This document shows positions 3,075 to 23,347 of a DNA stretch of 64,000 nucleotides, in pieces. A program made the translations under genes and the position numbers. The notes below the pieces were generated by a model, which searched no databases, was not told where the DNA came from, and was given only the letters and a program-made list of their open reading frames with translations. Position 1 is the first letter of the stretch, and each line of letters opens with the position of its first letter. This DNA is from an uncultured Acidobacteriota bacterium (GTDB lineage: Bacteria > Acidobacteriota > Vicinamibacteria > Vicinamibacterales > CAVVIG01): positions 332,661-396,660 of the forward strand of contig CAVVIG010000009.1 of NCBI GenBank assembly GCA_963748265.1, in the 5' to 3' direction.

Positions 3075-3527
3075 ATGAAATCCCGCCGCCAGGGCGCCAT
3101 TCTCGAGATCGTCGATCGCGAGCCGCTGCACAGCCAGGAACAGCTGCGCCGCCGGCTGCTCCACTCAGGGTTCGAAGCAACCCAGGCGACGATCTCGCGC
3201 GACATCAAGGAGCTCGGCCTGGTCAAACGCGCCGGAGACGGTGCCTACCAGCGGCCGGGCGTCACGACCGCCAGCCCCGAGATGGCGCTCAACGCGCTGG
3301 CGCACGCCGCGTCCGAATACGTGCACCGCGTGGAGCGCGTGCAGCAGCTGCTCGTCATCAGGACCGGCGCCGGGCAGGCGCAGGCGCTTGCGCACGCCAT
3401 CGACGGTGCGCGGCTGCCCGAAGCGGTCGGCACGATCGCAGGCGACGACACGATCCTCGTCATCACGAAAGACACCCGCCGGGCGGGTTCGCTCATCAAG
3501 CGGCTCGAGTCGCTGGCCGGTCTCTGA
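3075..3527 (+). CDS. argR: Arginine repressor
   Basis: MKSRRQGAILEIVDREPLHSQEQLRRRLLHSGFEATQATISRDIKELGLVK...GTIAGDDTILVI matches an ArgR winged-helix N-domain plus the GTIAGDDT oligomerisation/arginine-binding motif. The start is taken at ATG 3075 inside track ORF 3027-3527. Confidence 0.85.
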   Translation: MKSRRQGAILEIVDREPLHSQEQLRRRLLHSGFEATQATISRDIKELGLVKRAGDGAYQRPGVTTASPEMALNALAHAASEYVHRVERVQQLLVIRTGAGQAQALAHAIDGARLPEAVGTIAGDDTILVITKDTRRAGSLIKRLESLAGL

Positions 3528-4564
3528 TGCGCATCGTGCTCGCCTATTCGGGCAGCGTCGAGTGCTCCGCCGCGCTCGCGTGGCTGCGCCAGGAGCGGGG
3601 CGCGGAAGTGGTCGCCGTCACCGTGGACCTCGGCCAGGGGCGCGAGCTCGAGACCATTCGCGATCATGCGCTGGCGCTCGGCGCGCAGCGCGCGCACGTG
3701 CTCGACACCCGCGAGCGGTTCGCGCAGCGGTACGTCGTGCCTGCCCTGAAGGCCGACGCGCTCCATGACGGCCTCGCGCCGATGGGGCTCGCGCTCAGCC
3801 GGCCGGCCATCGCCGAACGCGTGGTGGAGATCGCCGGGATCGAGCGCGCCGACGCGGTCGCGCACGCTGGCGCCTCCGGGACCTCGCGGCTCGATCGCCT
3901 GCTTCGCAGTCTCGCGCCGGCCCTCGACGTCGTGCGGCCGGTCCAATCGTGGAGTCTGACGCCGGACGAGCTCGCAAGCTTTGCCCGTACGCACGGGCTG
4001 CTGCCGACCGCGGGGCTCGAGTCGCAGGCGAGCCTGTGGGGACGCTACGTCGCGTGCGGCGCGTCGGAACCGGTTCCGCCGCCCAGGTCCGAGCGCGACT
4101 GCCCTGAGGAGCCGGCGATCGTCGACATCGCATTCGAGGCCGGCGTACCGACGGCGCTGAACGGTGTCGCCCTCCCGCTGCTCGAGCTCTTTGCGAGCGT
4201 GGACACCCTGGCCGCCACGCACGGCGTCGGCCGGATCGAACTCGAGGACCTGGTGTGCGACGCGCCCGCTGCGGTGCTGCTGCACACCGCCCATCGCGCG
4301 CTCACGCGCGCTGCGGCGACAGGCGACCTCGAGCCGCTGGCGCGCCCGGTCCAGGGGGCATACGCATCGCTCGTCGACGAGGGGCGCTGGTTCTCGCCGC
4401 TGCGCGAGGCGCTCGATGCATACTTGGCGGTCGTCCAGCAGCGCGTCACCGGTCATGTGCGTTTGCGGCTGCTCAAAGGCACGCACACGACCCTTGCCAC
4501 TCACGTTACGGAGCCGTCGGACCGCCGCCCGTCGGTCGCCGCTCCATTGCCAGCACGGAAGTAA
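3527..4564 (+). CDS. argG: Argininosuccinate-synthase-like protein, divergent (degenerate PP-loop)
   Basis: MRIVLAYSGSVECSAALAWL...VVAVTVDLGQG...HGVGRIELEDLV...VTGHVRLRLLKG is collinear with ArgG, at 345 aa. Its ATG overlaps the argR stop (TGATG), and it occupies the argG slot between argR and argH. The canonical AYSGGLDTS and HGATGKGNDQ motifs are replaced (see findings). Confidence 0.65.
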   Translation: MRIVLAYSGSVECSAALAWLRQERGAEVVAVTVDLGQGRELETIRDHALALGAQRAHVLDTRERFAQRYVVPALKADALHDGLAPMGLALSRPAIAERVVEIAGIERADAVAHAGASGTSRLDRLLRSLAPALDVVRPVQSWSLTPDELASFARTHGLLPTAGLESQASLWGRYVACGASEPVPPPRSERDCPEEPAIVDIAFEAGVPTALNGVALPLLELFASVDTLAATHGVGRIELEDLVCDAPAAVLLHTAHRALTRAAATGDLEPLARPVQGAYASLVDEGRWFSPLREALDAYLAVVQQRVTGHVRLRLLKGTHTTLATHVTEPSDRRPSVAAPLPARK

Positions 4565-6896: not shown

Positions 6897-8781
<1,885 letters not shown>

Positions 8782-8785
<4 letters not shown>

Positions 8786-10205
8786 GCGGCGACTCGGTGA
8801 TGCATAGCGCAGCGACCGTCGACGTTTACTCGGCTGAGACCCGACTCGAGGTGCGGACTAGGCGCGTTAACGGTCCGCCGTGGCTCGAGGCCGTACTCGC
8901 GCGATCTTCCGGTAGAGCGTGCCGCGGCTGATGTCGAGCACCCGGGCGGCTTCCTTCTTGTTCCAGCTGCACCGCCTCGAGCACGCGCATGATGTGCGCG
9001 CGTTCCGCTTCGGCAGCGACGGCAGCCGGTCGCCCGTGGCGGTGCGCGCCGGCGGCGCGAGGCGTGCAGGAACTCGATGTCGCTGGCGCGGATGACCGGC
9101 CCGGCGCCGACAGCGCGGCGCGCGACACGGTGCTTTCGAGCTCGCGGATGTTGCCGGGCCAGGGATACGTCAGCAGCTGGTCGAGGCGTCGCGCGCGAAC
9201 GCTCTTGGCGTCGAGCGGCAGGCCGTGGGCCGCGCAGTAGCGCGCGAGGAAGCGCTGCGCCAGCACCGGGATGTCGACCTGGCGCTCCCGCAGCGACGGC
9301 AGCCGGATCGCGAACGCGTTGACGCGGTAGTACAGGTCCTCGCGGAAGCGGCCGTCGCGCACGAACTGATCGAGCGGCCGGTTCGTCGCCGAGATCAGCC
9401 GGAAGTCGACCGAGATCGATCTGTTTCCGCCCAGCCGCTCGAACCGCCGCTCCTCGAGCACGCGCAGCAGCTTGGCCTGCGCGATGAGCGACATGTCGCC
9501 GATCTCGTCGAGGAACAGCGTGCCGTCGTTGGCGAGTTCGAGGCGGCCCGGCTTGCGGTCGTGCGCGCCGGTGAAGGCGCCCTTCTCGTAGCCGAAGATC
9601 TCGGACTCGAACAGCGTGTCGGGCAGCGCCGCGCAGTTGACTGCCTGGAACTTCGCCCTTTTCGCGCCGGCTCAACTCGTGGATCATCCGCGCGACGACT
9701 TCCTTGCCCGATCCGGTCGGGCCGAGGATCAGCACCGAGATGTCGGACTTGGCCGCCGTGCGGATCCACTCGAAGACGATCAGCATCTTCTCGTCGCGGC
9801 CGATCATCTCGCGGAAACGCTGGACGGACGGCGACTGATCCTCGCGTGCTGACCATGGCGCGCCGTTCGAGGAAGTTGTCGAGCAGCGCGCGGTCGCCTC
9901 GTCGGCCGGACGCGATGCGCTGTATTGCGGCGGGAGACCGGCCTCTGCGGTGCTGCGAATCAGGCCGAAGTCCACCAGCTCGCGCAGGCAGTTGTCGACG
10001 TCGAGGCGCAGGCGGCCGAACGCCTGCATCAGGGCCTCGACGTCGAACGCGTCGTCGGGGCGCGCGTTCAGGTAGCGGAGCAGGCCCGCACGCAGGGGCG
10101 ACTGCACGAGCGCGTGAAACCGCGCATCGGGGTCGCCCGGTCCCGTGGGGTGCCGCCGCCGCGCTGCCGCCGGCGCGCCGACGCGCGGAGCTGCGACTCG
10201 TCCAT
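8782..10205 (-). CDS. Sigma-54-dependent transcriptional activator (bacterial enhancer-binding protein, AAA+), non-receiver N-terminus; reading frame broken at least 4 times
   Basis: [20 protein letters not shown] (Walker A); [29 protein letters not shown] (GAFTGA loop, in the third frame); [49 protein letters not shown]...[25 protein letters not shown]...[12 protein letters not shown]; C-terminal HTH ...[27 protein letters not shown]. The N-terminal limit is uncertain (10107 or the ATG at 10205). Confidence 0.75.
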
Positions 10206-10207
10206 TT

Positions 10208-10606
10208 GTGTGCCGGTGTTATCGGCTTGAGGGGAGTCGGTCCCGACAGCGGCGAGTCGCCGGGCCGTCGCCCTTCGCGGTAGTACTCGGTCTGGTACTG
10301 CTCGATGAGCTCTTTCATCGCAATCGGCGTCGGCTTTGCGGTGCCCGTGGCAGCGGATCGGCGTTCGCGCCGCCGGTGGTCTCGATGAGCACGTGCGACA
10401 GCAGCGCGCCGGTGTCGATCTTGACCGAGGCGACGTGCGTGATGTGGATCGACTGTTCCTGCTGGCCGAACCACTGCGGCGTGTAGTGCACGACGCTGGT
10501 CGGCGTGATCAGCACCTGCGTCGGGAAGAGGCGGTTGCCCCGGCTGAGGCGGCTCGCGCGGAAGACGGCGCCCTGCGGCGAACGGACGCGCCTTGATGCT
10601 AGCCAT
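10208..10606 (-). CDS. Small bacterial PH-domain-like (bPH_2/YdbS-like) protein; frameshifted, boundaries uncertain
   Basis: MASIKARPF...RLFPTQVLITPTSVVHYTPQWFGQQEQSIHITHVASVKIDTGALLSHVLIETTGGANADPL..GHRKADADAIAMKELIEQY. This is a pattern-level resemblance only to membrane-associated bPH domains. Confidence 0.35.
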
Positions 10607-10727
10607 CAGCAGCCAGACAGCGCGAGCAGCGCGGCCAGGCCGCGCCAGAACCCACCACGAGCCGCTGACCGGTACTCGGCTCACGAGCGTCGATGTTAAG
10701 CTATTTGTCCATCAAGGAGACCGCATC

Positions 10728-11878
10728 GTGCCCCATCGTGCGCCAGGCGCGTCCGGCCGCCCGCAAGCCGTTCCTTTCGGGAAAGCCGATCACGCTACTA
10801 CCGCCCGACAGGCAGCCCGGAGGTCAAGCGCCTCATCGACGAAGGATTCCAGGCGTTCAACGCCGGGCGCCTGTCGGAGGCCTGCCAGATCTTCTCCGAG
10901 AAGATGCTGGACCCCGAGAACGACACGACCATCGGCCTCACCGTCGCCGGCGCGCTGACGCCCGCCGGGCCTCGGCGGCTGCGTCATCGAGCTGATGGAT
11001 CGCGGGCTGGTCGACTTCGTCATCTAGACCGGCGCGAACCTCTATCACGACCTGCACTACGCGCTGAACTTCACGCTGCGGCGCGGTTCGCCCGTTCCTC
11101 GACGACGTCGAGCTGTACGAGGAAGGCGTCATCCGCATCTACGACGTGCTCTTCCCGGCGACCGTGCTGCTCGAGACCGACGCGTACATCCGCGACTTCA
11201 TCGTGCGCTCGGGATTGAACGAGCCGATCGCCACGTCGGAGTTCCACTACCGCCTCGGGCAGGACCTGCTGGAGCGATCAGCCGGGCTGCGAGGAGTACT
11301 CGGTGGTGGCGCGCGCCGCGAAAGCCGGCGTGCCGATCTACACCTCGTCGCCCGGCGACAGCTCGATCGGCATGAACATCGCCTACCACGAGCTGATGAA
11401 CGACAGCCGGCTGATGATCGATCCCAACAAGGACGTCAACGAGATCTGCGCGATCGTGCTCGCCGGCAGCAGAACGGCTGCGTGATTCTCGGCGGCGGGT
11501 CGCCGAAGAACTTCTACCTGCAGGCGCAGCCTACGCTCTGGGAGGTCTACGGCATCCCGAAGGGCGGGCAACGATTACTTCATCCAGATCACGACCGACC
11601 AGGTGGTCTGGGGCGGACTGTCGGGCGCGACGCCGGCCGAAGCGGTGAGCTGGGGCAAGGTGAACCCGGGCGTGCTGCCCGACACCGTCGTCGCGTACTG
11701 CGACTCGACGATCGCGTTTCCGCTGTTCTGCGAGTACGCGGTCGGCGTCGCCGAATTCGGCGCCGCCCGCGGAAGGAACTCCTGCACAAGCGCGGCGAGC
11801 TGGTGGCGGCGCTCGTGCACCGAGGCCCGGGCCGCCGACGACGCAGCGGAAGGCGGCGGACGATCGGACGGAGCCTGA
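10728..11878 (+). CDS. Deoxyhypusine synthase-like protein (DHS/homospermidine-synthase family); reading frame broken at least 5 times
   Basis: Assembled pieces: EVKRLIDEGFQAFNAGRLSEACQIFSEKMLDPENDTTIGLTVAGALTPAG / LVDFVISTGANLYHDLHYAL / VLFPATVLLETDAYIRDF / VVARAAKAGVPIYTSSPGDSSIGMNIAYHEL / NGCVILGGGSPKNFYLQAQP / VVWGGLSGATPAEAVSWGKVNP...AYCDSTIAFPLF. An AAGGAG Shine-Dalgarno sequence sits 8 nt before GTG 10728. Confidence 0.7.
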
Positions 11879-15193: not shown

Positions 15194-15601
15194 ATGTACT
15201 CAGTCACCAAGCGCATCGACTTCTGTTACGGTCACCGGCTGCTCGACTACGACGGCGTCTGCAAGCATCCGCACGGGCACAACGCGGTCGCGGAGATCGA
15301 GGTCCGGACCGATCAACTCGACACCCGCAACATGGTGTGCGACTTCAGCGACATCAAGCGGATCGTCAAGGGGTGGATCGATCGCGAGCTCGATCACAAG
15401 ATGATCCTCCGCCACGACGACCCGCTCGTGGCGCCCCTCAAGGCGCTGGGCGAACCGATCTTCATCGTCGACAGTAACCCGACGGTCGAACGGCTCGCGC
15501 GCCTCATCTTCGACTACGCGGCGGAACAGCGGCTGCCTGTCGTTCGCGTCACGGTGTGGGAGACGCCGACATCGTTCGCCGAGTACCGGTCGGAGCAGTG
15601 A
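15194..15601 (+). CDS. queD: 6-carboxy-5,6,7,8-tetrahydropterin synthase
   Basis: MYSVTKRIDFCYGHRLLDYDGVCKHPHGHNAVAEIEV...WETPTSFAEY. The C-x-x-x-H-G-H motif of QueD/PTPS is present. It is divergent from queC. Confidence 0.9.
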   Translation: MYSVTKRIDFCYGHRLLDYDGVCKHPHGHNAVAEIEVRTDQLDTRNMVCDFSDIKRIVKGWIDRELDHKMILRHDDPLVAPLKALGEPIFIVDSNPTVERLARLIFDYAAEQRLPVVRVTVWETPTSFAEYRSEQ

Positions 15602-15644
15602 GGGGCCGGCCGGCGCGCTGCGGCCTCCGGCGGTCGGCGGGCCG

Positions 15645-16298
15645 GTGAGTCTTCCCGCCCTCATCGTCTTCGATCTCGACGGTACCCTCGTCGACTCGCT
15701 CCGCGACCTGGCGGAGTCGGCCAACGAGCTGCTCACCGCGTGCGGCTGCGCCCCGCATCCGGAAGCGGCCATTGGACGAATGGTGGGCGAGGGGGCGGCC
15801 ACGCTCGTGGCTCGTGCCTTTGCGGCGGCCGGCGCCGTGCCGCCTCCCGACGCCCTCGAGCACTTCCTCGCCATCTACGACGCTCGACCGCTCCGCCATA
15901 CGCGCCCCTATGCCGGCGTCCCGGAACTGCTGACGAAGCTCGCTGACGCTTCGACGCTGGCTGTGCTCACGAACAAGCCACTGGCCGCCACGCGCGCGAT
16001 CCTCGTCGGCCTCGAGCTCCTGCCGTATTTTGGCGCGCGGGTCATTGGCGGCGACGGCCCGCTCCCGCGGAAGCCGGACCCGGCAGGGCTGCTTTCCCTT
16101 ATCGAGGCGCGGACGACGCCGGCCGATACGGTGATGGTGGGCGACTCGCCGGTGGATCTGCGGACGGCCCGGGCGGCAGGCGCGAAGGGCTGCGTGGCGC
16201 GGTATGGCTTTGGGGCCGCGGCGTTTACCAATGACGAGCTTGAAAAATCCGATTACGTGATTAGCAAACCCCTTGAGCTTCTGTCGGCTCTACTGTAG
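15645..16298 (+). CDS. HAD-superfamily phosphoglycolate phosphatase-like hydrolase
   Basis: LIVFDLDGTLVDS (motif I), VLTNKP (motif II), KPDPAGLL and VMVGDSPVDLRTARAAG (motifs III/IV). Confidence 0.8.
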   Translation: MSLPALIVFDLDGTLVDSLRDLAESANELLTACGCAPHPEAAIGRMVGEGAATLVARAFAAAGAVPPPDALEHFLAIYDARPLRHTRPYAGVPELLTKLADASTLAVLTNKPLAATRAILVGLELLPYFGARVIGGDGPLPRKPDPAGLLSLIEARTTPADTVMVGDSPVDLRTARAAGAKGCVARYGFGAAAFTNDELEKSDYVISKPLELLSALL

Positions 16299-16383
16299 GG
16301 TTACGCTGCGCTCGAGGTGGTCATCTGTTCAGCTGTACTGCAAGTCTGAAAATCAAGGTGAGCAATAGTACGTAAAATCGGTT

Positions 16384-16399
16384 TGGCATTTGGGTTGCT
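16384..16399 (+). promoter_or_regulatory. Sigma-54 (-24/-12) promoter upstream of the gas-vesicle cluster
   Basis: TGGCATTTGGGTTGCT compared with the consensus TGGCAC-N5-TTGCW: GG and GC are exactly 12 nt apart. It sits in an AT-rich spacer, 49-70 nt upstream of the first gvp start (16448/16469). Confidence 0.6.
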
Positions 16400-16447
16400 G
16401 AGATAAGAACATCCCGACGTGACTGTGCCGCTCGTGGCCGTGGCGGG

Positions 16448-16801
16448 GTGTCACGACTTACCGAAACTATGCCGACGTCACTCTCCGACGGGCACGGGCG
16501 TTCCACCGGTCTCGTCGACGTCCTCGACCGTGTGCTCGACAAGGGGCTGGTCGTGGCTGGCGACATCAAGGTGTCGCTCGCCGAAGTCGAGCTCCTCACG
16601 ATACGGATCCGTCTGCTCATTTGCTCCATCGACAAGGCCGAGCAGATCGGTCTCGACTGGTGGAAGTTCGATCACCACCTCTCGCCAGGGAAGCAGGCGC
16701 TGTCGGCGGAGAACGAGGAGCTGCGACGTGAGATTCGCGTGCTCGAACGCAGGCTCGCCTCGATGTCGCGGCGGCGACCGCCAGCGGGAGCACTGAAGTG
16801 A
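16448..16801 (+). CDS. gvpJ: Gas vesicle protein, GvpA/J family (GvpJ-like)
   Basis: [52 protein letters not shown] matches a GvpJ-type core, with a coiled-coil-like tail. An alternative start is ATG 16469. Confidence 0.85.
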   Translation: MSRLTETMPTSLSDGHGRSTGLVDVLDRVLDKGLVVAGDIKVSLAEVELLTIRIRLLICSIDKAEQIGLDWWKFDHHLSPGKQALSAENEELRREIRVLERRLASMSRRRPPAGALK

Positions 16802-16843
16802 TCGGGGCGGCCGTCGTGCGCCGGCATTCCCAGGGAGAAGCTG

Positions 16844-17179
16844 ATGCCCGTTGAACGCGCTGCCGGCGGCACGAGCCTGATCGACGTGCTCGATCGCGTC
16901 CTGGACAAGGGGATCGTGATCGATGCGTGGGTCCGGGTGTCGCTGGTCGGCATCGACCTGATCACCGTCGAGGCGCGCGTGGTCGTCGCCTCGATTGACA
17001 CATATCTCAAGTACTCCGAAGCGGTGGGTCAGGCCGCGCCTGTGAGCCGGCCGGCGATTGAATCCAAGCCGTATGAGGAACTCATTGCCGAGAATGCCGC
17101 ACTCAGGGCTCAGCTCCAGAGCAGCGTCAATGCCCGCAAGGCTGTTGTCGGACGCCGCCGCGCCCCCGCGCGCAGCTGA
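16844..17179 (+). CDS. gvpA: Gas vesicle structural protein GvpA
   Basis: [51 protein letters not shown] is near-canonical GvpA core sequence. Confidence 0.9.
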
Positions 17180-17198
17180 GCGAGCTGACCGAAACGGC

Positions 17199-19340
17199 GT
17201 GTCCGCTCACGCGCGTGCGGCCGCGTCCCGCGACGACCGCCTCGCCGCGCGGCTCCGGCTGCTCGAGGGCTTTCTCAGCCGCATCGAGCCGGCTGACTGT
17301 GCCTACTACGCGCTGCAATGGCTCGCCCAGACCCTCGGCATCTCGCGATCGCTCTGCCTGATTCGCCCCGCGCACGAACAGACGCTCATCGCCATCGCCT
17401 GGCACGGCTTCTCCTCCACGATCGCGACGGAGTTCTCCGTCAGCCTCGACGACTGGGGCAGCCCGCTGGTGCAGCTGCTCCACACGCATCGGCACGTGCG
17501 ATTTCCAGCCGCGCACACGTCGACCGAACGCCGCCGCCGTCCGGGGACCCCGTTCGAAGACACGGCGTTTCACGCGGTGCCGCTCGGTGGCGCGGGCTAC
17601 GCCAACGAGGCGTTCGGCCTGCTGCTCACCGGCAGCGCGCAGAGCACCGACGACCTCGCGTGGTTCAGCGCGGTCCTCGGGCAGAAGCTCGATCAGATCC
17701 TGCGGCAGAAGGAGCTCGCCGACGGCGACCATCGCCACGGCCGTGAGCGCTCCCTCCTCTACAGCATCATCAACGCCGTCTCCGACCCGATCCTGCTGAC
17801 CGACACCGAGGGCCGCCTGCTCATCGCCAATGCCCGCGCGCTGTCGCTCTTCACGTCGTCGGAGGAGGAGAGCGAGGGGCGACGCGGCGCGGTGCGGATG
17901 AACAACATGCTGCTGTCGTCGGGGCTCTCGAGCAAGGCGCTCGAGGAGTCGGGCGCGGCGCGGCGGGAGCTGGTGCTCGTGAACCCGGTGGACGGCTCCG
18001 ACCTGGTGTTCGAGCTCCTGAGCACGGCGACTGAAGATCCGCGCCACGGCACCGGCATCGTGTCGATCCTGCGCAACGTGACCGACCTGCGTCGCGCCGG
18101 CGAGGAGATCGAGGACAACTACCGCCGGCTGCGCATCGCCGAGGCGCAGGCGCGCACCGAGGGCGATCGGCTGAACCTGATCATCGACTCGGTGGCCGAT
18201 CCGATCGTCGTCACCGACTCGGGGGGCGCGACGTCGCTGATGAACGAGCCGGCGGAGCGGCTGTTCACGATCAAGGCCGCGGCAGGACCCTCGGAGCAGC
18301 GCGCCGTGCAGGCCAACGACGCGCACTTCTCGTCGTTCATCGCCGGCATGCTCCTCAGCCCGGATCAGCGTCGTGTCGGCGACATCGCCCTCACCGATCC
18401 AGGCAGCGGGAGCCCGATGCCGGTCGAGGCGATTGCCGGCAAGGTGCTGTCGCCGCGGGGCGAGCTGACGGCGGTCGTCACAATCCTGCACGATCGCCGC
18501 GAGGCGCTCGAGAAAGCCCGCCTCTTCGAGCAGCTGAAGGAAGCGTCCGACGAACTGGAACGAAAGATCCAGGCGGCTACCGCCGATATCGCGCAACAGA
18601 ACGAGCTGCTGCGCCGCCAGGCGATCGCGCTCGAACAGGCGTCGATGCTCAAGTCGCAGTTCCTCGCGAACATGTCGCACGAGTTCCGCACCCCGCTGAA
18701 CGCGATCCTCGGCTACACCTCGATGCTGCTGCAGGGGGTGAGCGGGCCGATCGAGGGTCCGGCGCGGCGTCAGCTCGGACGGATCGAATCCAACGGCCGC
18801 CACCTGCTCACGATCATCAACGAGATCCTCGACATCTCCAGGATCGAGGCGGGCCGGATGCCGCTGCAGGTCTCGCGCGTCAACCTGCGCGAGCTGCTGA
18901 ACGAAGTCCGGGCGGAGCTCGAGCCGATCATCCTGCGCTCGAAGCTGGAGGTGACGCTCGTCGTCGCGCGCGACCTCCCGCCCATGTCGACCGATCGGCA
19001 GAAGGTGAAGCAGATCCTCCTCAATCTGCTGAGCAACGCGCTGAAGTTCACACATGAGGGGTCGGTGAGGATCACCGCCCGCCGGCGTCCCAACGAACGT
19101 GCTTTCGAGCTCCAGGTCGCGGACACCGGCATCGGCATTGGCGCGGCCGACCAGGAGCGCATCTTCGAAGACTTCCGCCAGCTCGATAACACGCCGACGC
19201 GTCCGTACGGCGGCACGGGCCTGGGGCTGTCCATCTGCCGCCGACTCGCCAAGATGCTGGGCGGATCGATCAGGGTGCACAGTCAGGCAGGCGCCGGGTC
19301 CACGTTCACGTTGACACTTCCATCACAGGGCAGGAGATGA
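17199..19340 (+). CDS. Soluble sensor histidine kinase (GAF-like N-domain, two PAS-like domains, HisKA, HATPase_c)
   Basis: Intact ORF (track 17058-19340). The likely start is GVSAH at GTG 17199, or ATG 17130 overlapping gvpA. H-box: FLANMSHEFRTPLNAILGY. N/G boxes: LLNLLSNALKFT, DTGIGI, GGTGLGLSICRRLAKMLGG. No hydrophobic transmembrane stretch was seen. Confidence 0.85.
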   Translation: MSAHARAAASRDDRLAARLRLLEGFLSRIEPADCAYYALQWLAQTLGISRSLCLIRPAHEQTLIAIAWHGFSSTIATEFSVSLDDWGSPLVQLLHTHRHVRFPAAHTSTERRRRPGTPFEDTAFHAVPLGGAGYANEAFGLLLTGSAQSTDDLAWFSAVLGQKLDQILRQKELADGDHRHGRERSLLYSIINAVSDPILLTDTEGRLLIANARALSLFTSSEEESEGRRGAVRMNNMLLSSGLSSKALEESGAARRELVLVNPVDGSDLVFELLSTATEDPRHGTGIVSILRNVTDLRRAGEEIEDNYRRLRIAEAQARTEGDRLNLIIDSVADPIVVTDSGGATSLMNEPAERLFTIKAAAGPSEQRAVQANDAHFSSFIAGMLLSPDQRRVGDIALTDPGSGSPMPVEAIAGKVLSPRGELTAVVTILHDRREALEKARLFEQLKEASDELERKIQAATADIAQQNELLRRQAIALEQASMLKSQFLANMSHEFRTPLNAILGYTSMLLQGVSGPIEGPARRQLGRIESNGRHLLTIINEILDISRIEAGRMPLQVSRVNLRELLNEVRAELEPIILRSKLEVTLVVARDLPPMSTDRQKVKQILLNLLSNALKFTHEGSVRITARRRPNERAFELQVADTGIGIGAADQERIFEDFRQLDNTPTRPYGGTGLGLSICRRLAKMLGGSIRVHSQAGAGSTFTLTLPSQGRR

Positions 19341-19774
19341 CAAGAATCAAAACCGATCGGCCGAAGGTGCTTCTGGTCGACGACTACCCGGATGCCCGCG
19401 AGATGTACAGCGAGTACCTCCAGTTTTCGGGCTTCGAGGTCGTGGAGGCCGCCAACGGCATCGAGGCCCTGCAGCGGGCGGTCGACACCGCCCCAGACAT
19501 CATCCTGATGGATTTGTCGCTGCCGGTCATGGACGGCTGGGAGGCGACCCGTCGTCTCAAGGCGGACGGACGGACCGCGGACATCCCCGTGGTCGCCCTC
19601 ACCGGGCACGCGTTGGCGGGCATTTCGGAGGGCGCCCGCCAGGCGGGCTGCGACGCCTTCGTCACCAAACCGTGCCTGCCCGAGGATCTGGTACGCGAAA
19701 TTCGCAAGGTCCTCGACGACATCGCCTCGCGCGGACCGCGCCGGAGTGGCGGGTATGCGAAAACCATCGGCTAG
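19337..19774 (+). CDS. Receiver-only response regulator (CheY-like)
   Basis: KVLLVDDYPDAREMY...DIILMDLSLPVMDGWEATRRLK...PVVALTGHA...CDAFVTKP. At 145 aa there is no output domain. The ATG overlaps the kinase stop (ATGA). Confidence 0.9.
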   Translation: MTRIKTDRPKVLLVDDYPDAREMYSEYLQFSGFEVVEAANGIEALQRAVDTAPDIILMDLSLPVMDGWEATRRLKADGRTADIPVVALTGHALAGISEGARQAGCDAFVTKPCLPEDLVREIRKVLDDIASRGPRRSGGYAKTIG

Positions 19775-20758
19775 CGCACGCCCCTCCGGGCGCGGCGCTC
19801 CCCGAGTCCCCAGGGCGGCGTCGCGCGCGAGGGCGCCGCCGGAAAGTCGGCACGTGCGAAGTCCGCGAAGGCGGCACCGAAGGGCAATGGCAAGGCGGTA
19901 AGTCTCAAGAGCACCCGCGGCCCGAAGAGGCCGGCCGCGACGCCCGAGCGCCCGAAGCTCCGGCCCGCGGCGCCCGCCGCAACCTCCGCCGAGAGCGAGA
20001 CGGGACTGACCAGCCGCGGGAAGTACGTCTACTGCATCATCGAGGCGGGCGAGCCGCTGCGGTTCGGCCCGATCGGCATCGGCGCCCAGCCGAGCGACGT
20101 GCACACGGTGCACTTCAGGAACCTGGCGGCGGTCGTCTCCGACGCACCGCTCGAAGTGCTCGACTCGACGCGCGAGAACGTGCTGGCGCACGAACGCGTC
20201 AACGAGACGGTGATGCGCGAGCACACCGTCATCCCGATGTCGTTCGGCACGATTTTCAAGACGCGCGACGACATCGTGGAACTGCTCCGGTCGGCGGCCG
20301 AGGCGTTCAACGACGTCCTGAACAAGATGCGCAACAAGCTCGAATTCGGGCTGAAGGTGCTCTGGGATCGGGACCAGGCGATCCGCGAGGTGGAGGGCGA
20401 AGACGACGACATCGGGCGCCTGAAGCAGGAGATCTCGGTGCAGAAGGGGCCGACCTATTTCGCGCGCATGCAGTACGGCCGTCTGGTCGACGCGGCGCTG
20501 CAGGCCCGTTCGGAGCGCTACATGCCGGCGATCCTGGACGAGCTGCGCGACGTGTCGGTCGCCTCCCGCATCAACAAGCCGATCGGCGACAAGATGATCA
20601 TGAACGCCGCGTTCCTGATCTCGCGCGACCGCGAGGGCGCCTTCGACCAGAAGGTGAAGCTCATCGCCGGCCGCTTCGACCGGCTCACGTTCAAGTACAC
20701 CGGGCCGTGGCCTCCCTATAATTTCGTGAACATACGCCTGAAGCTCGAACGGGCCTGA
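19755..20758 (+). CDS. gvpF: Gas vesicle protein GvpF/GvpL family, with Lys/Ala/Pro-rich N-terminal extension; probable frameshift near the 5' end
   Basis: GKYVYCIIEAGEPLRFGPIGIGAQPSDVHTVHFRNLAAVVSDAPLEVLDSTRENVLAHERVNETVMREHTVIPMSFGTIF...FKYTGPWPPYNFV. No in-frame start lies between the response-regulator stop and KYVYC, so ATG 19755 plus one frameshift is inferred. Confidence 0.75.
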
Positions 20759-20765
20759 TCGCCTG

Positions 20766-21011
20766 ATGTTCATCCTCGATTCGCTGCTGATCGGCTCCCT
20801 GCGCTTCGTGCTCGACGAAGCTGCTAGCCGCCGCCGAAGCGAGGCGCCGACGACACGGCGCTCCGCGAGCAGCTCCTCGAGGCCCAGATGCGTCTCGAAA
20901 TCGGCGAGCTCGAATCACGAACGAGGTATACCAGGCGGTCGAGCGCGAGGTGCTCGCGCGCATCCGCCTGCTGAGGGGCGTCGTGAGGGTGAGCCGGTCA
21001 CGCTGACCTAG
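20766..21011 (+). CDS. gvpG: Gas vesicle protein GvpG; frameshifted
   Basis: MFILDSLLIGSLRFVLD..., then in shifted frames ALREQLLEAQMRLEIGELE and ITNEVYQAVEREVLARIRLLRG. This is the typical GvpG layout. Confidence 0.7.
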   Translation: MFILDSLLIGSLRFVLDEAASRRRSEAPTTRRSASSSSRPRCVSKSASSNHERGIPGGRARGARAHPPAEGRREGEPVTLT

Positions 21012-21077
21012 CCTGGCGTCGAAGGGGCGGGACGTCGAGGCCACGACGATTGGGAGCGAACTCGACGACGTGATCGA

Positions 21078-21880
21078 ATGAGCAGGCCGCCTACGTCCAC
21101 CGCCCGATCACCTCCGCAACGTCCGTCTGCAGCGCCCTCGCCGGCGCGGCCTGCCTGCTGTCCCGCGCGCGCTGAAGGGATCGCCCCTGCCGATCGAGTC
21201 GTCCGACTGCGTCGCGGCGGAAGAGCCGGCTCAAAAGTGGCTCGCCGTGGCCGATGCGCCGCTCGCGCGACTACGGCGAGGCCGCCGCTACGGGAAGGCC
21301 TGAACGACCTCGACTGGGTGTCCCGTGCGTGCCCTGGCGCACGAGGCGCGTCGTGGAGTCGATGATAGCGCCGCCGCCGTGCTGCCGATGAAGCTCTTCA
21401 CGATCTTCACGAGCGACGAGCGCGCGGTCGGCCACATGGAGCACGCCTGGGGCGTATCGACGCCATCCTCGAGCGTGTCGCGCGGCCGCCAAGAGTGGGG
21501 CGTCCGTGTGGTCATCACCCCCGGACCGGGACCAACCACCCGGGCGGCCGAACGCCGCGTCGCCTCGGGTTCAGGCTACCTCGCAGCCAAGAAGGCAGCG
21601 CGAACGGAACGAACTGAGCGGGCGGCACGCGCCGAGCGCGTCGTGGCCTCGCTCTACGACCGGCTCGCGAAGCTGGGTGACGCGGCGCACGAGGCGTTCG
21701 GCGGTCGAGGAACTGGTCGATGGTGGACCGCTCCTGCTCGACGCGGCGTTTCTCGTGCCGCGTCAGCGGCGCTCGCGCTTCAGGGCCGCGCTCAGGCGCG
21801 AGGCCGAGCGGCTCCAGGAACAGGGGTATGGTCTGACGGTGAGCGGCCCCTGGCCGCCGTACAGTTTCGTCGAGAGATGA
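21078..21880 (+). CDS. gvpL: Second GvpF/GvpL-family gas vesicle protein; heavily frameshifted
   Basis: Pieces: AAYVH.., LAVADAPLA, GLNDLDWVSR, AVLPMKLFTIFTSDERAVGHMEHAWG, EWGVRVV, ELVDGGPLLLDAAFLVPRQRRSRFRAALRREAERLQEQGYGLTVSGPWPPYSFVER*. Confidence 0.7.
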
Positions 21881-21887
21881 CCGGGAG

Positions 21888-22202
21888 ATGAGATCCCGGT
21901 CCCGCGTGGAGCGACCGTCACGGCCGCCCTCTTCGCCGGTGGAAGCCGATCGCGTGCTCGGTGTCGAGGGGGCGACGGTCGTGGACATCCTCGACCGTCT
22001 CCTGAGCAAGGGCGTGATGGCGACCGGGGACATCACCCTCGGCGTCGCTGGAGTCGACTTGGTCTACCTCGTTTGTCGGCACTCTCTGTCCGCCGTCGAC
22101 AAGGTCTTGGACCGGCAGAGCACACGGCCGCCGGTCGGACGGCGGCGTCAGGCGAGCGCCGGACCGCGTCGAGTCCCCGGGCGCCGGGGCGAGAGCCGAT
22201 GA
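21888..22202 (+). CDS. Third GvpA/J-family gas vesicle protein (GvpJ/M/S-like)
   Basis: TVVDILDRLLSKGVMATGDITLGVAGVDLVYL...SAVDKV. The 3' end is uncertain; an alternative frame continues toward gvpK. Confidence 0.7.
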   Translation: MRSRSRVERPSRPPSSPVEADRVLGVEGATVVDILDRLLSKGVMATGDITLGVAGVDLVYLVCRHSLSAVDKVLDRQSTRPPVGRRRQASAGPRRVPGRRGESR

Positions 22203-22296
22203 GCCCGAGTCGTCGGAAACGGTCGCCCCGATCGCGCCTCTCACACGGAAAGCGGAAGAGGGCGCCTCAACGAAGGAAGCGCGCTTCGGCCGCCCC

Positions 22297-22668
22297 GTGT
22301 CGCCGACGCGCGACGAACTTCGTGCGCTCACGCGTGCTCAAACGCGCTGGCCGTCACCGCGCGGCGCCCCGCCGAACGAAGCCTCGACGGTCTGCCGGCT
22401 CAACGGCGCGTCGCGCTGGAATCCGGATCCCGAGGATGTGCAGCGGTCGGTCGCTCAACTCGTGCTCACGCTCGTCGAATTCCTGCGCGAGCTCATGGAG
22501 CGCCAGGCGATCAGGCGGATGGAGCAGAAGACGCTGACACCCGAAGGAGGTGGAGGCCGTCGGCCTGCGCTGATGCGTCTGGAGGAAACGATCCGTGACA
22601 TCGGCCGTCGGTTCGGTCTGACGCCAGAAGATCTGAATCTCGACCTGGGGCCGATCAAGCTGGTGTAG
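22297..22668 (+). CDS. gvpK: Gas vesicle protein GvpK
   Basis: NPDPEDVQRSVAQLVLTLVEFLRELMERQAIRRMEQKTLTPE..LMRLEETIRDIGRRFGLTPEDLNLDLGPIKLV. A local compensated frameshift is inferred (PEGGGGRRPA where EEVEAVGLA is expected). Confidence 0.75.
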   Translation: MSPTRDELRALTRAQTRWPSPRGAPPNEASTVCRLNGASRWNPDPEDVQRSVAQLVLTLVEFLRELMERQAIRRMEQKTLTPEGGGGRRPALMRLEETIRDIGRRFGLTPEDLNLDLGPIKLV

Positions 22669-23347
22669 TCAGGCTCGTGGCTTCGACCAGCAGCTTCGAC
22701 GCGGCGCGCGTGCCGATGGTGATGCGCTGTCGATTGCGCCCCCGGAGCCTGCACGGAGTCGGCGGCGGTATCGCGCAGCTCGACTTCGACCGGTTGTCCC
22801 GGCTTGAGATCGTTGCATCTCGATGAAGCGGAGGAAGGCCGGGTCCTGATCGGTGATGCGCGTGACCCTCAGCGGCGTGCCGAGCGGGCAGGTCAGCAGG
22901 CTGTCGAGATGGCGCGGCGTGATGCGCCCTCGGCGGTCGGGATCGGATCGCCGTGCGGATCGTGCGGTCGGGCGGCCGAGCATCTCGTCGATGCGCTCGA
23001 TGAGCCGCTCGGAGACGACGTGCTCGAGCTGCTCGGCTTCGTCGTGCACCTCGGCCCAGCTCATGCCCATCACCTGCACGAGGAACGAGCTCGACCAGGC
23101 GATGACGCCGCAGCACCAGCCCGGCGAGCTTTTCGCCGGCGGCGTCAGCCGGACGCCGCTGTACGGCTCGTATTCGGCCAGCCCCGATTCGGCCAGCGCC
23201 TTCACCATCGTCGTCGCGGTGCCGGGCGTGACGCCGAGAGCCGCTCGCGACCTGTCCCATCGGCACGAGCCGCGCGTCGCGCCGGCAGCGCGACTGGCCC
23301 TGGTAGATGGCCTTGAGGTAGTTCTCGACCGTGCTCGACGGGAGCAT
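22655..23347 (-). CDS. DtxR/IdeR/MntR-family metal-dependent repressor with C-terminal SH3-like/FeoA domain; reading frame broken at least 3 times
   Basis: STVENYLKAIYQ.. / VTPGTATTMVKALAESGLAEYEPYSGVRLTP / AGEKLAGLVLRRHRLVE / FLVQVMGMSWAEVHDEAEQLEHVVSERLIERIDEMLG / CPLGTPLRVTRITDQDPAFLRFIE. The 3' end overlaps the gvpK 3' end by 14 nt (convergent). Confidence 0.75.
   Translation of the reverse strand: MLPSSTVENYLKAIYQGQSRCRRDARLVPMGQVASGSRRHARHRDDDGEGAGRIGAGRIRAVQRRPADAAGEKLAGLVLRRHRLVELVPRAGDGHELGRGARRSRAARARRLRAAHRAHRRDARPPDRTIRTAIRSRPPRAHHAAPSRQPADLPARHAAEGHAHHRSGPGLPPLHRDATISSRDNRSKSSCAIPPPTPCRLRGRNRQRITIGTRAASKLLVEATSLTTPA

Follow-up and report, generated by a model that had tools for sequence, protein, structure and literature searches.

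The DNA analyzed here is a stretch of 64,000 nucleotides (the window) from an uncultured Acidobacteriota bacterium of the order Vicinamibacterales (contig CAVVIG010000009.1, positions 332,661 to 396,660), and the subject of the analysis is an island of gas-vesicle protein (gvp) genes in it, together with the sequence that very likely serves as the main promoter of the island, a putative sigma-54 (RpoN) promoter. The island spans roughly 6.4 kb and its genes are all located on the plus strand with small gaps between them. Directly upstream of it is a gene for a HAD hydrolase (15645-16298; Pfam HAD_2). The first gene of the operon, gvpJ-like (16469-16801), belongs to the GvpA/J/M family; its product has more than 7,999 homologues with PF00741, the best of them 96% identical, and its matches to the NCBIfam GvpA/GvpJ models fall below cutoff. 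Its start codon is the ATG at 16469, which corrects by one nucleotide the 16470 given in an original prediction made from the letters of the window. It is followed by gvpA, encoding the major structural protein of the gas vesicle (16844-17179; Pfam Gas_vesicle, E = 1e-16; NCBIfam GvpA, 112 bits against a cutoff of 100), then by genes for a sensor histidine kinase with the Pfam domains PAS-PAS-HisKA-HATPase_c (17130-19340, start codon uncertain) and a single-domain CheY-like response regulator (19337-19774; Pfam Response_reg, E = 1e-23), and by gvpF (up to 20758; Pfam GvpL_GvpF, E = 3.5e-73), with which the last part of the island (19775-22668) opens. The remaining genes are gvpG (from 20766), a second gvpF/L (about 21078-21891; Pfam GvpL_GvpF), gvpJ2 (from 21888; Pfam Gas_vesicle) and, at the island end, gvpK (22297-22668; Pfam GvpK). 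When the GvpJ and GvpA sequences of the window were looked up as exact sequences, no identical record was retrieved; the homologues place the organism in the Vicinamibacterales (Acidobacteriota).

Several genes of the window are frameshifted as read, namely a deoxyhypusine-synthase-like gene (10712-11814, plus strand) and, in the region 20766-22668 of the plus strand, gvpG, the second gvpF/L and gvpK, the frame of the last containing a compensating pair of shifts; this end of the island was read in three frames and compared by tblastn with the intact genes of a related locus (L003). Likewise, a gene for a sigma-54 activator on the minus strand (8782-10205) contains at least 10 isolated single-base insertions or deletions (indels) when compared with nine orthologues; orthologues from metagenome-assembled genomes (MAGs) built from short reads are intact. 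Since such isolated indels are frequent in the window while the short-read orthologues are intact, the window looks like an uncorrected, error-prone long-read assembly rather than a site of pseudogenes or gene decay.

The 170-nt spacer between the HAD gene and the gvpJ-like gene contains the sequence TGGCATTTGGGTTGCT (16384-16399, plus strand), which lies 70 nt before the ATG; in orthologues the distance from motif to gvpJ start ranges from 66 to 90 nt. Its GG (16385-16386) and GC (16397-16398) would represent the -24 and -12 elements of a sigma-54 promoter. The two are 10 nt apart, which is the canonical register, and the same register was found in all 28 orthologues described below; thus, the position and spacing that had been predicted for this element were confirmed. 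When compared with the extended consensus TGGCAC-N5-TTGCW, which is said to have been compiled by Barrios et al. in 1999, the motif agreed at 10 of the 11 specified positions, the sole difference being a T for C at the sixth base. The pattern TGGCA-N6-TTGCW has this single match in the 64 kb, counting both strands, for 0.09 expected, and the looser TGGCA-N7-TGC is also matched in the window only here, in agreement with the earlier statement that the other TGGCA copies lack a correctly spaced GC. The spacer is indeed AT-rich, as had also been noted, with a G+C content of 47-52% in 100-nt windows around it versus 68% for the whole window. A simple scan of 15500-17500 revealed no sigma-70-type promoter and no terminator. 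The second-best sigma-54-like match of the window, CGGCACCTCCGTTGCA (7732-7747, plus strand), has one mismatch to the full consensus and is antisense to a gene just after an SDR gene; it was judged to be a chance match.

For comparison, 80 gvp loci were collected by scanning one genome per species with the GvpJ-like protein of the window as query. The 28 closest (L001-L026, L033 and L059), all from Vicinamibacterales MAGs and with GvpJ sequences 76-93% identical to the query, constitute the sigma-54-type set. In every one of these 28 loci the pattern TGG[CT]A[CT]-N5-TTGCT occurs 80-104 nt before the start codon of the same gene, and only 6 further matches were found in all 80 loci, amounting to 2.77 Mb on both strands. 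Alignment of the upstream regions by MAFFT, in which mean column identity was 50%, returned TGG.A and TTGCT as invariant columns. When the sequences were anchored on the motif, the T, G, G and A as well as each base of TTGCT carried 2.0 bits of information, and the 20 nt upstream carried 0-0.56 bits; the N5 spacer occurred in 16 distinct forms among 29 sequences, and the full TGGCAC in 11 of the 29. It is this combination, i.e., GG and GC elements that are invariant at fixed spacing while the spacer and flanks are free to change, that argues for a sigma-54 footprint. At the level of sequence comparison, the pattern is clearly the one that a sigma-54 promoter would predict, and is unlike that expected of a dyad operator or a coding remnant. 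The use of sigma-54 by this lineage is indirectly supported by the activator gene in the window, which encodes the GAFTGA motif and is intact in orthologues. We therefore assign TGGCATTTGGGTTGCT with high confidence as the predicted sigma-54 promoter of the gvp operon; the original proposal that such a promoter drives the cluster is supported by its presence in all 28 loci, by the variability of its spacer and flanks, and by the failure to find a sigma-70-type promoter or an RNA structure.

Farther upstream, two dyad sequences were recognized that may constitute an enhancer. Dyad A, TGTAGGGTTACGCTGCG (16294-16310, plus strand), has the clade consensus TGTA-N9-TACG and overlaps the TAG stop codon of the HAD gene (16296-16298); dyad B, TGTTCAGCTGTACTGCA (16326-16342, plus strand), has the clade consensus TGTYGGGCTTYGATGCA, which is of the TGTY-N9-TGCA type. 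Block A was present as an exact TGTA-N9-TAC[AG] in 23 of the 28 orthologues, and block B as TGTYGGGCTWYNNTGC in 22, the latter pattern occurring nowhere else in the 80 loci. A single 17-bp dyad, TGT(N)-N9-T(R)C(R), accommodates both. The spacing between A and B is 32-35 bp (33 in 21 of 25 sequences), that is, about three helical turns, and B precedes the TGG of the -24 element by 54-58 bp in 24 of the 26 sequences that could be measured and by 61 and 66 bp in the remaining two; the dyads thus start approximately 90 bp (A) and 58 bp (B) upstream of -24, and the sequences between the blocks vary across orthologues. The segment between enhancer and promoter (16343-16383, plus strand) is AT-rich and variable, and holds an A-rich tract and an AGTAC arm; a block GTTCCATACCAAATTC within it is found in roughly half of the orthologues and weakly in the window. 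Two other features had previously been proposed in this region. Both arms of a GTACT...AGTAC inverted repeat do exist (16336-16340 and 16368-16372), but they are merely 5 nt long and 27 nt apart, and the repeat is conserved in no orthologue; its GTACT arm overlaps the conserved block B. The notion of a binding site for IHF in the A-rich tract was not upheld, since the consensus is matched in its WATCAA half but not in its TTR part, and the tract lacks conservation.

The two-site arrangement has a well-known parallel in the NtrC enhancer of Escherichia coli glnAp2, where two dyads separated by about three helical turns and lying upstream of a sigma-54 promoter nucleate the activator oligomer. 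The present dyads are likewise about three helical turns apart and upstream of a predicted sigma-54 promoter, but they are nearer to it, their centres preceding the -24 TGG by approximately 50 and 82 bp, and they differ in sequence, being TGTA-N9-TACA here as opposed to TGCACC-N5-GGTGCA in glnAp2.

A clue to the protein that may bind these dyads was offered by a search for TGTA-N9-TAC[AG] in 1.45 Mb of the 80 loci, which returned 46 matches. Block A of the sigma-54 clade accounted for 23 of them, and nearly all the others were found in just six loci (L063, L067, L070, L075, L079 and L080), which are sister Vicinamibacterales clusters containing an activator gene of their own; the 46 loci that have no sigma-54 promoters had no match. 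In the six sister loci a perfect palindrome, such as TGTAGTTAAACAATACA, is situated just upstream of the activator gene, and an exact copy of the dyad, TGTAGCGGTTTCATACG in L067, recurs in L067, L070 and L075 approximately 77 nt before a sigma-54 promoter, named P_a, which has the conserved sequence TGGCAC-N5-GTGCT; L079 and L080 carry near-copies of the dyad at that place. The encoded activator has REC, Sigma54_activat (with GAFTGA) and HTH_8 domains, and is thus a GvrA-like response regulator of the NtrC type. Because the dyad is otherwise found almost only beside GvrA-like genes and their sigma-54 promoters, we infer that blocks A and B would be binding sites of a GvrA-like regulator. The six sister loci represent a second type of Vicinamibacterales gvp cluster; in L067-L080 the activator gene is accompanied by three conserved sigma-54-like promoters, one of which precedes a gene for a small membrane protein (MLWTIFLVL...) with a YtxH-like gene further downstream, whereas gvpJ in these clusters has instead a -10-like sequence, GATATACT.

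Taken together, the reading that we consider very likely is that of a functional sigma-54 promoter, acting as the main promoter of the gvp island; the two dyads would be its enhancer, and a GvrA-like regulator supplied from outside its most probable activator. In this mechanism, sigma-54 RNA polymerase would form a closed complex on GG-N10-GC, and dyads A and B would serve as the enhancer on which a dimer-binding AAA+ activator assembles and then touches the closed complex across the short AT-rich spacer, allowing transcription from near 16410. The activator would most likely be a GvrA-like response regulator of the NtrC family (REC, AAA+, HTH_8) encoded outside the 64-kb window, and the kinase and CheY-like protein of the operon could be the counterparts of GvrB and GvrC, passing a signal to the activator and creating feedback.

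There is a direct precedent for such control. In Serratia sp. ATCC 39006, the start of gvpA1 transcription has been mapped by 5' rapid amplification of cDNA ends (5'RACE) downstream of a consensus sigma-54 site, and gvpA1 expression needs each of GvrA, which is NtrC-like, GvrB and GvrC (Tashiro 2016, PMC4982088). In a later report, gas vesicles and gvpA1 expression are described as lost in an rpoN mutant, and proteobacterial gvp clusters as usually carrying gvrA, gvrB and gvrC (PMC11778176). The precedent invoked in the original prediction is therefore real, resting on the mapped start, the dependence on all three Gvr proteins and the rpoN mutant. The two systems are alike in having a sigma-54 -24/-12 promoter, predicted in the present case, before the first structural gvp operon, in the implication of an NtrC-family activator, and in encoding a sensor kinase and a single-domain response regulator with the gvp genes; moreover, in the sister Vicinamibacterales clusters a REC-AAA+-HTH gene resides inside the cluster, as gvrA does. 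They differ in the phylum of the host, which is Acidobacteriota rather than Proteobacteria, and in the order of the genes, the first gene here being gvpJ-like and gvpA coming next, while the kinase and CheY genes lie between gvpA and gvpF in the structural operon instead of in a separate gvrA operon. They also differ in that the island of this clade contains no activator gene (16300-22700 of the window and the islands of L001-L026), and neither gvpN nor gvpC was seen in any of these clusters. The kinase and the CheY-like protein are putative counterparts of GvrB and GvrC. The Serratia gvpA1/GvrA/GvrB/GvrC system is reportedly also treated in a 2011 study by Ramsay. Overall, the control logic known from Serratia is here extended, by prediction, to another phylum, and is no new kind of mechanism.

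A number of observations weigh against the proposed mechanism. The activator gene of the window contains an indel approximately every 130 nt, so that the exact spacings read from the window are somewhat uncertain. The window block A has one mismatch, TGCG in place of TACG (TGC for TAC), the window block B differs from its consensus at 5 central positions, and L001 is without a clean block A. The CTG TAG of block A is also constrained as the last codon and the stop of the HAD gene. A search for the sigma-54 gene itself, as an open reading frame with an RpoN box, was negative for the window and for all fetched loci. Lastly, neither the window nor the 10 kb flanking each of the 28 sigma-54-type loci on either side yielded a GvrA-like gene, which leaves the proposed activator hypothetical in this genome.

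A different choice of partner would keep the sigma-54 promoter but have blocks A and B bound by the protein of the 8782-10205 gene, located 6 kb upstream. This protein is a REC-less AAA+ activator, in which an N-terminal domain of no known type is joined to a GAFTGA-containing AAA+ domain and HTH_8; its intact orthologue in L001 (2614-3975) similarly has an unassigned N-terminal domain of ~130 amino acids followed by Sigma54_activat and HTH_8, and no receiver domain. A six-frame search found no other GAFTGA motif in the window, in agreement with the earlier claim that this is the sole activator gene there. In 13 of the 26 closest loci an orthologue (72-80% identity) precedes the promoter by 6.7-9.6 kb, and these 13 have no strong sigma-54 promoter other than that of gvp within 10 kb, and none beside the activator gene. 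Furthermore, the dyads associated with its distant orthologues, TGTGCA-N5-TGCACA, share with blocks A and B the 17-bp span TGT-N11-ACA.

Several results nonetheless make this pairing improbable. The activator gene is part of a block consisting of FabI, the activator, the deoxyhypusine-synthase-like gene, amidohydrolase, DUF4097, queC, queD and HAD, and a metagenome scan with the REC-less activator protein as query revealed relatives that keep this block but have neither the gvp island nor the promoter (L095, L103, L105, L112, L121, L156 and L160). Because the block persists in these gvp-less relatives, the proximity of the activator would reflect the insertion site of the island and not a pairing. 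Conversely, blocks A and B are retained in at least six gvp loci of the sigma-54 type in which the 10 kb on either side contain no activator gene. The distant orthologues, moreover, have a sigma-54 promoter of their own, CGGCAG-N5-TTGCA, with TGTGCA-type dyads before a secreted-protein gene, whereas no TGTGCA-N5-TGCACA dyad was found in the gvp loci. The recognition helix is invariant across the REC-less activator family, and this invariance provides no discrimination. The 8782-10205 gene is thus a weak candidate for the partner of the promoter, and a GvrA-like activator encoded elsewhere is the preferred one; the original prediction was right to leave promoter and activator unpaired.

The surroundings of the REC-less activator gene yielded further observations. 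In about 36 loci (L097-L149), a conserved sigma-54 promoter of the sequence CGGCAG-N5-TTGC(A/C/G) is located 140-400 nt after the end of the activator gene, with TGTGCA-N5-TGCACA dyads before it; the gene after it encodes, in the loci inspected, a protein with a signal peptide. This promoter is likely the native target of the activator family. In the close clade, the candidates for a sigma-54 promoter beside the local activator gene were only coding-like repeats such as CGGCGCTGCTGCTGCT and TGGCGTCGCTGGTGCT. An 8-mer common to block B and the region upstream of the activator, CTGTYGGG, was dropped as it had 28 other occurrences in 514 kb, mostly in coding sequence. Directly upstream of the activator and on the same strand is a small gene (window about 10250-10700, minus strand) ending in ...KELIEQYQTEYYR, which is present in most relatives but not in L001, and the activator start codon is preceded by a CTGTCG-N18-GATAAC arrangement.

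The region between the promoter and gvpJ was examined in the same manner. From the geometry of sigma-54 promoters, transcription is predicted to start near 16410, which would leave a 5' untranslated region of ~59 nt (16410-16468, plus strand). Directly 3' of the -12 element, before the predicted start, is a partly conserved element, GAGATAAG (16400-16407, plus strand), found in approximately two thirds of the orthologues, with the majority base present in 15-22 of the 29 sequences at each position. In most orthologues (L002-L026 and others) the sequence GTAGAATAC was found 9-15 nt 5' of the gvpJ ATG, the equivalent in the window being 16450-16468; the TAGAAT within it, which is -10-like and separated from the ATG by 9 nt, would permit an additional promoter that is nearly leaderless. 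In place of GTAGAATAC, the window and L001 read GACTTAC, and no Shine-Dalgarno sequence is visible in either form. A riboswitch or other RNA structure in the predicted untranslated region was considered and ruled out, given 0 conserved base pairs across orthologues, a fold of the window sequence no better than that of shuffles (z = +1.67), and no Rfam match.

These results bear on a further alternative, namely that TGGCAY-N5-TTGCT is not a sigma-54 promoter at all, but belongs to a sigma-70 promoter, acts as an RNA element, or is an operator for a repressor or other DNA-binding protein. The presence of other conserved elements nearby, GAGATAAG just after the motif and, in most orthologues, GTAGAATAC close to the ATG, would be in its favor. 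However, the conserved positions are exactly those that define a sigma-54 promoter, namely the GG and GC 10 nt apart in TGGCA...TTGCT, with five intervening bases that vary; furthermore, the sequence is not a dyad, and no -35/-10 pair, conserved RNA fold or Rfam match was found, so that we consider all forms of this alternative very improbable. As for coincidence, a match arising by chance in AT-rich sequence between genes, at least one match did appear somewhere in 9 of 100 shuffled versions of the window. However, all 28 loci have the motif at the same position, while the background comprises 6 matches in 2.77 Mb, and this reading is already refuted.

The order gvpJ-gvpA-kinase-CheY-gvpF is common to all 80 loci, the place of the kinase after gvpA being kept in nearly all of them and the CheY-like gene adjoining the kinase across loci. 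The clusters of L027-L080 belong to Methylomirabilota/Rokubacteria, Myxococcales, Thermoanaerobaculia and other Vicinamibacterales, and their GvpJ proteins are 64-78% identical to that of the window. In the 52 loci outside the clade the sigma-54 motif is absent upstream of gvpJ, and in 19 of the 52 a sigma-70-type sequence, TTGNNN-N16-18-TA[TG]A[CGA]T (mostly TATACT), was found at a similar distance, where the background rate is 0.0025 per 250 nt; among the 29 sigma-54-type sequences, such a match was seen in only 1. Since the outside loci are without the sigma-54 motif and 19 of them have a TATACT-type promoter at a similar distance, the predicted promoter class is exchanged, sigma-54 versus sigma-70-type, within an otherwise conserved cluster. 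As a separate observation, several loci of Methylomirabilota/Rokubacteria (L029, L031, L034, L037, L038, L051 and others) have a GGGAAAAAGTTTTCAC-like palindrome 90-130 nt upstream of gvpJ and just upstream of a TTGTTG-N18-TATACT promoter; the palindrome is probably an operator for a different regulator.

The island itself is variable in its presence. In the gvp-less relatives named above, the HAD/queD end leads within about 1-1.5 kb to x145 (window about 22969-23347), the gene that comes after gvpK in gvp-positive genomes, and no promoter, enhancer blocks or sigma-54 motif was found at that place in these seven loci. On this comparison, the island, with its putative promoter and enhancer, is a presence/absence polymorphism of the clade, situated between HAD and the downstream gene. 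It is tempting to go one step further and to regard the island as a mobile or losable 'split' Gvr module, having its own promoter, enhancer, kinase and CheY-like protein, with the activator elsewhere in the genome; we offer this only tentatively and regard it as rather doubtful. Such a module would depend on a regulator from another part of the genome, either a GvrA-like NtrC protein or a resident activator that has been recruited.

Gas-vesicle clusters occur commonly in non-aquatic soil bacteria, and our literature search found no paper on gas vesicles in Vicinamibacteria. The predicted elements, namely the promoter, the two-site enhancer, the in-operon kinase and CheY-like protein, and the NtrC-type activator, provide testable objects for an abundant soil lineage that is hard to culture. 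If the reading as a split module is true, this family of clusters would be a natural series in which the rewiring of an organelle gene cluster between sigma factors can be studied, and may offer a handle on the signals that make soil bacteria build gas vesicles.

Two variations in the makeup of the island were also recorded. In most relatives a gene for a 652-amino acid tandem ATPase of the ArsA/Get3 type is located between gvpG and the second gvpF/L (L003, 14531-16489); it is lacking in the window and L001. In one locus (L122, about 3400-4100, minus strand), block A and a sigma-54 promoter, TGGCACCGCCGTTGCT, are found directly before the CheY-like regulator gene, gvpJ, gvpA and the kinase being absent and the gene downstream of the island following soon after, so that this locus looks like a remnant island.

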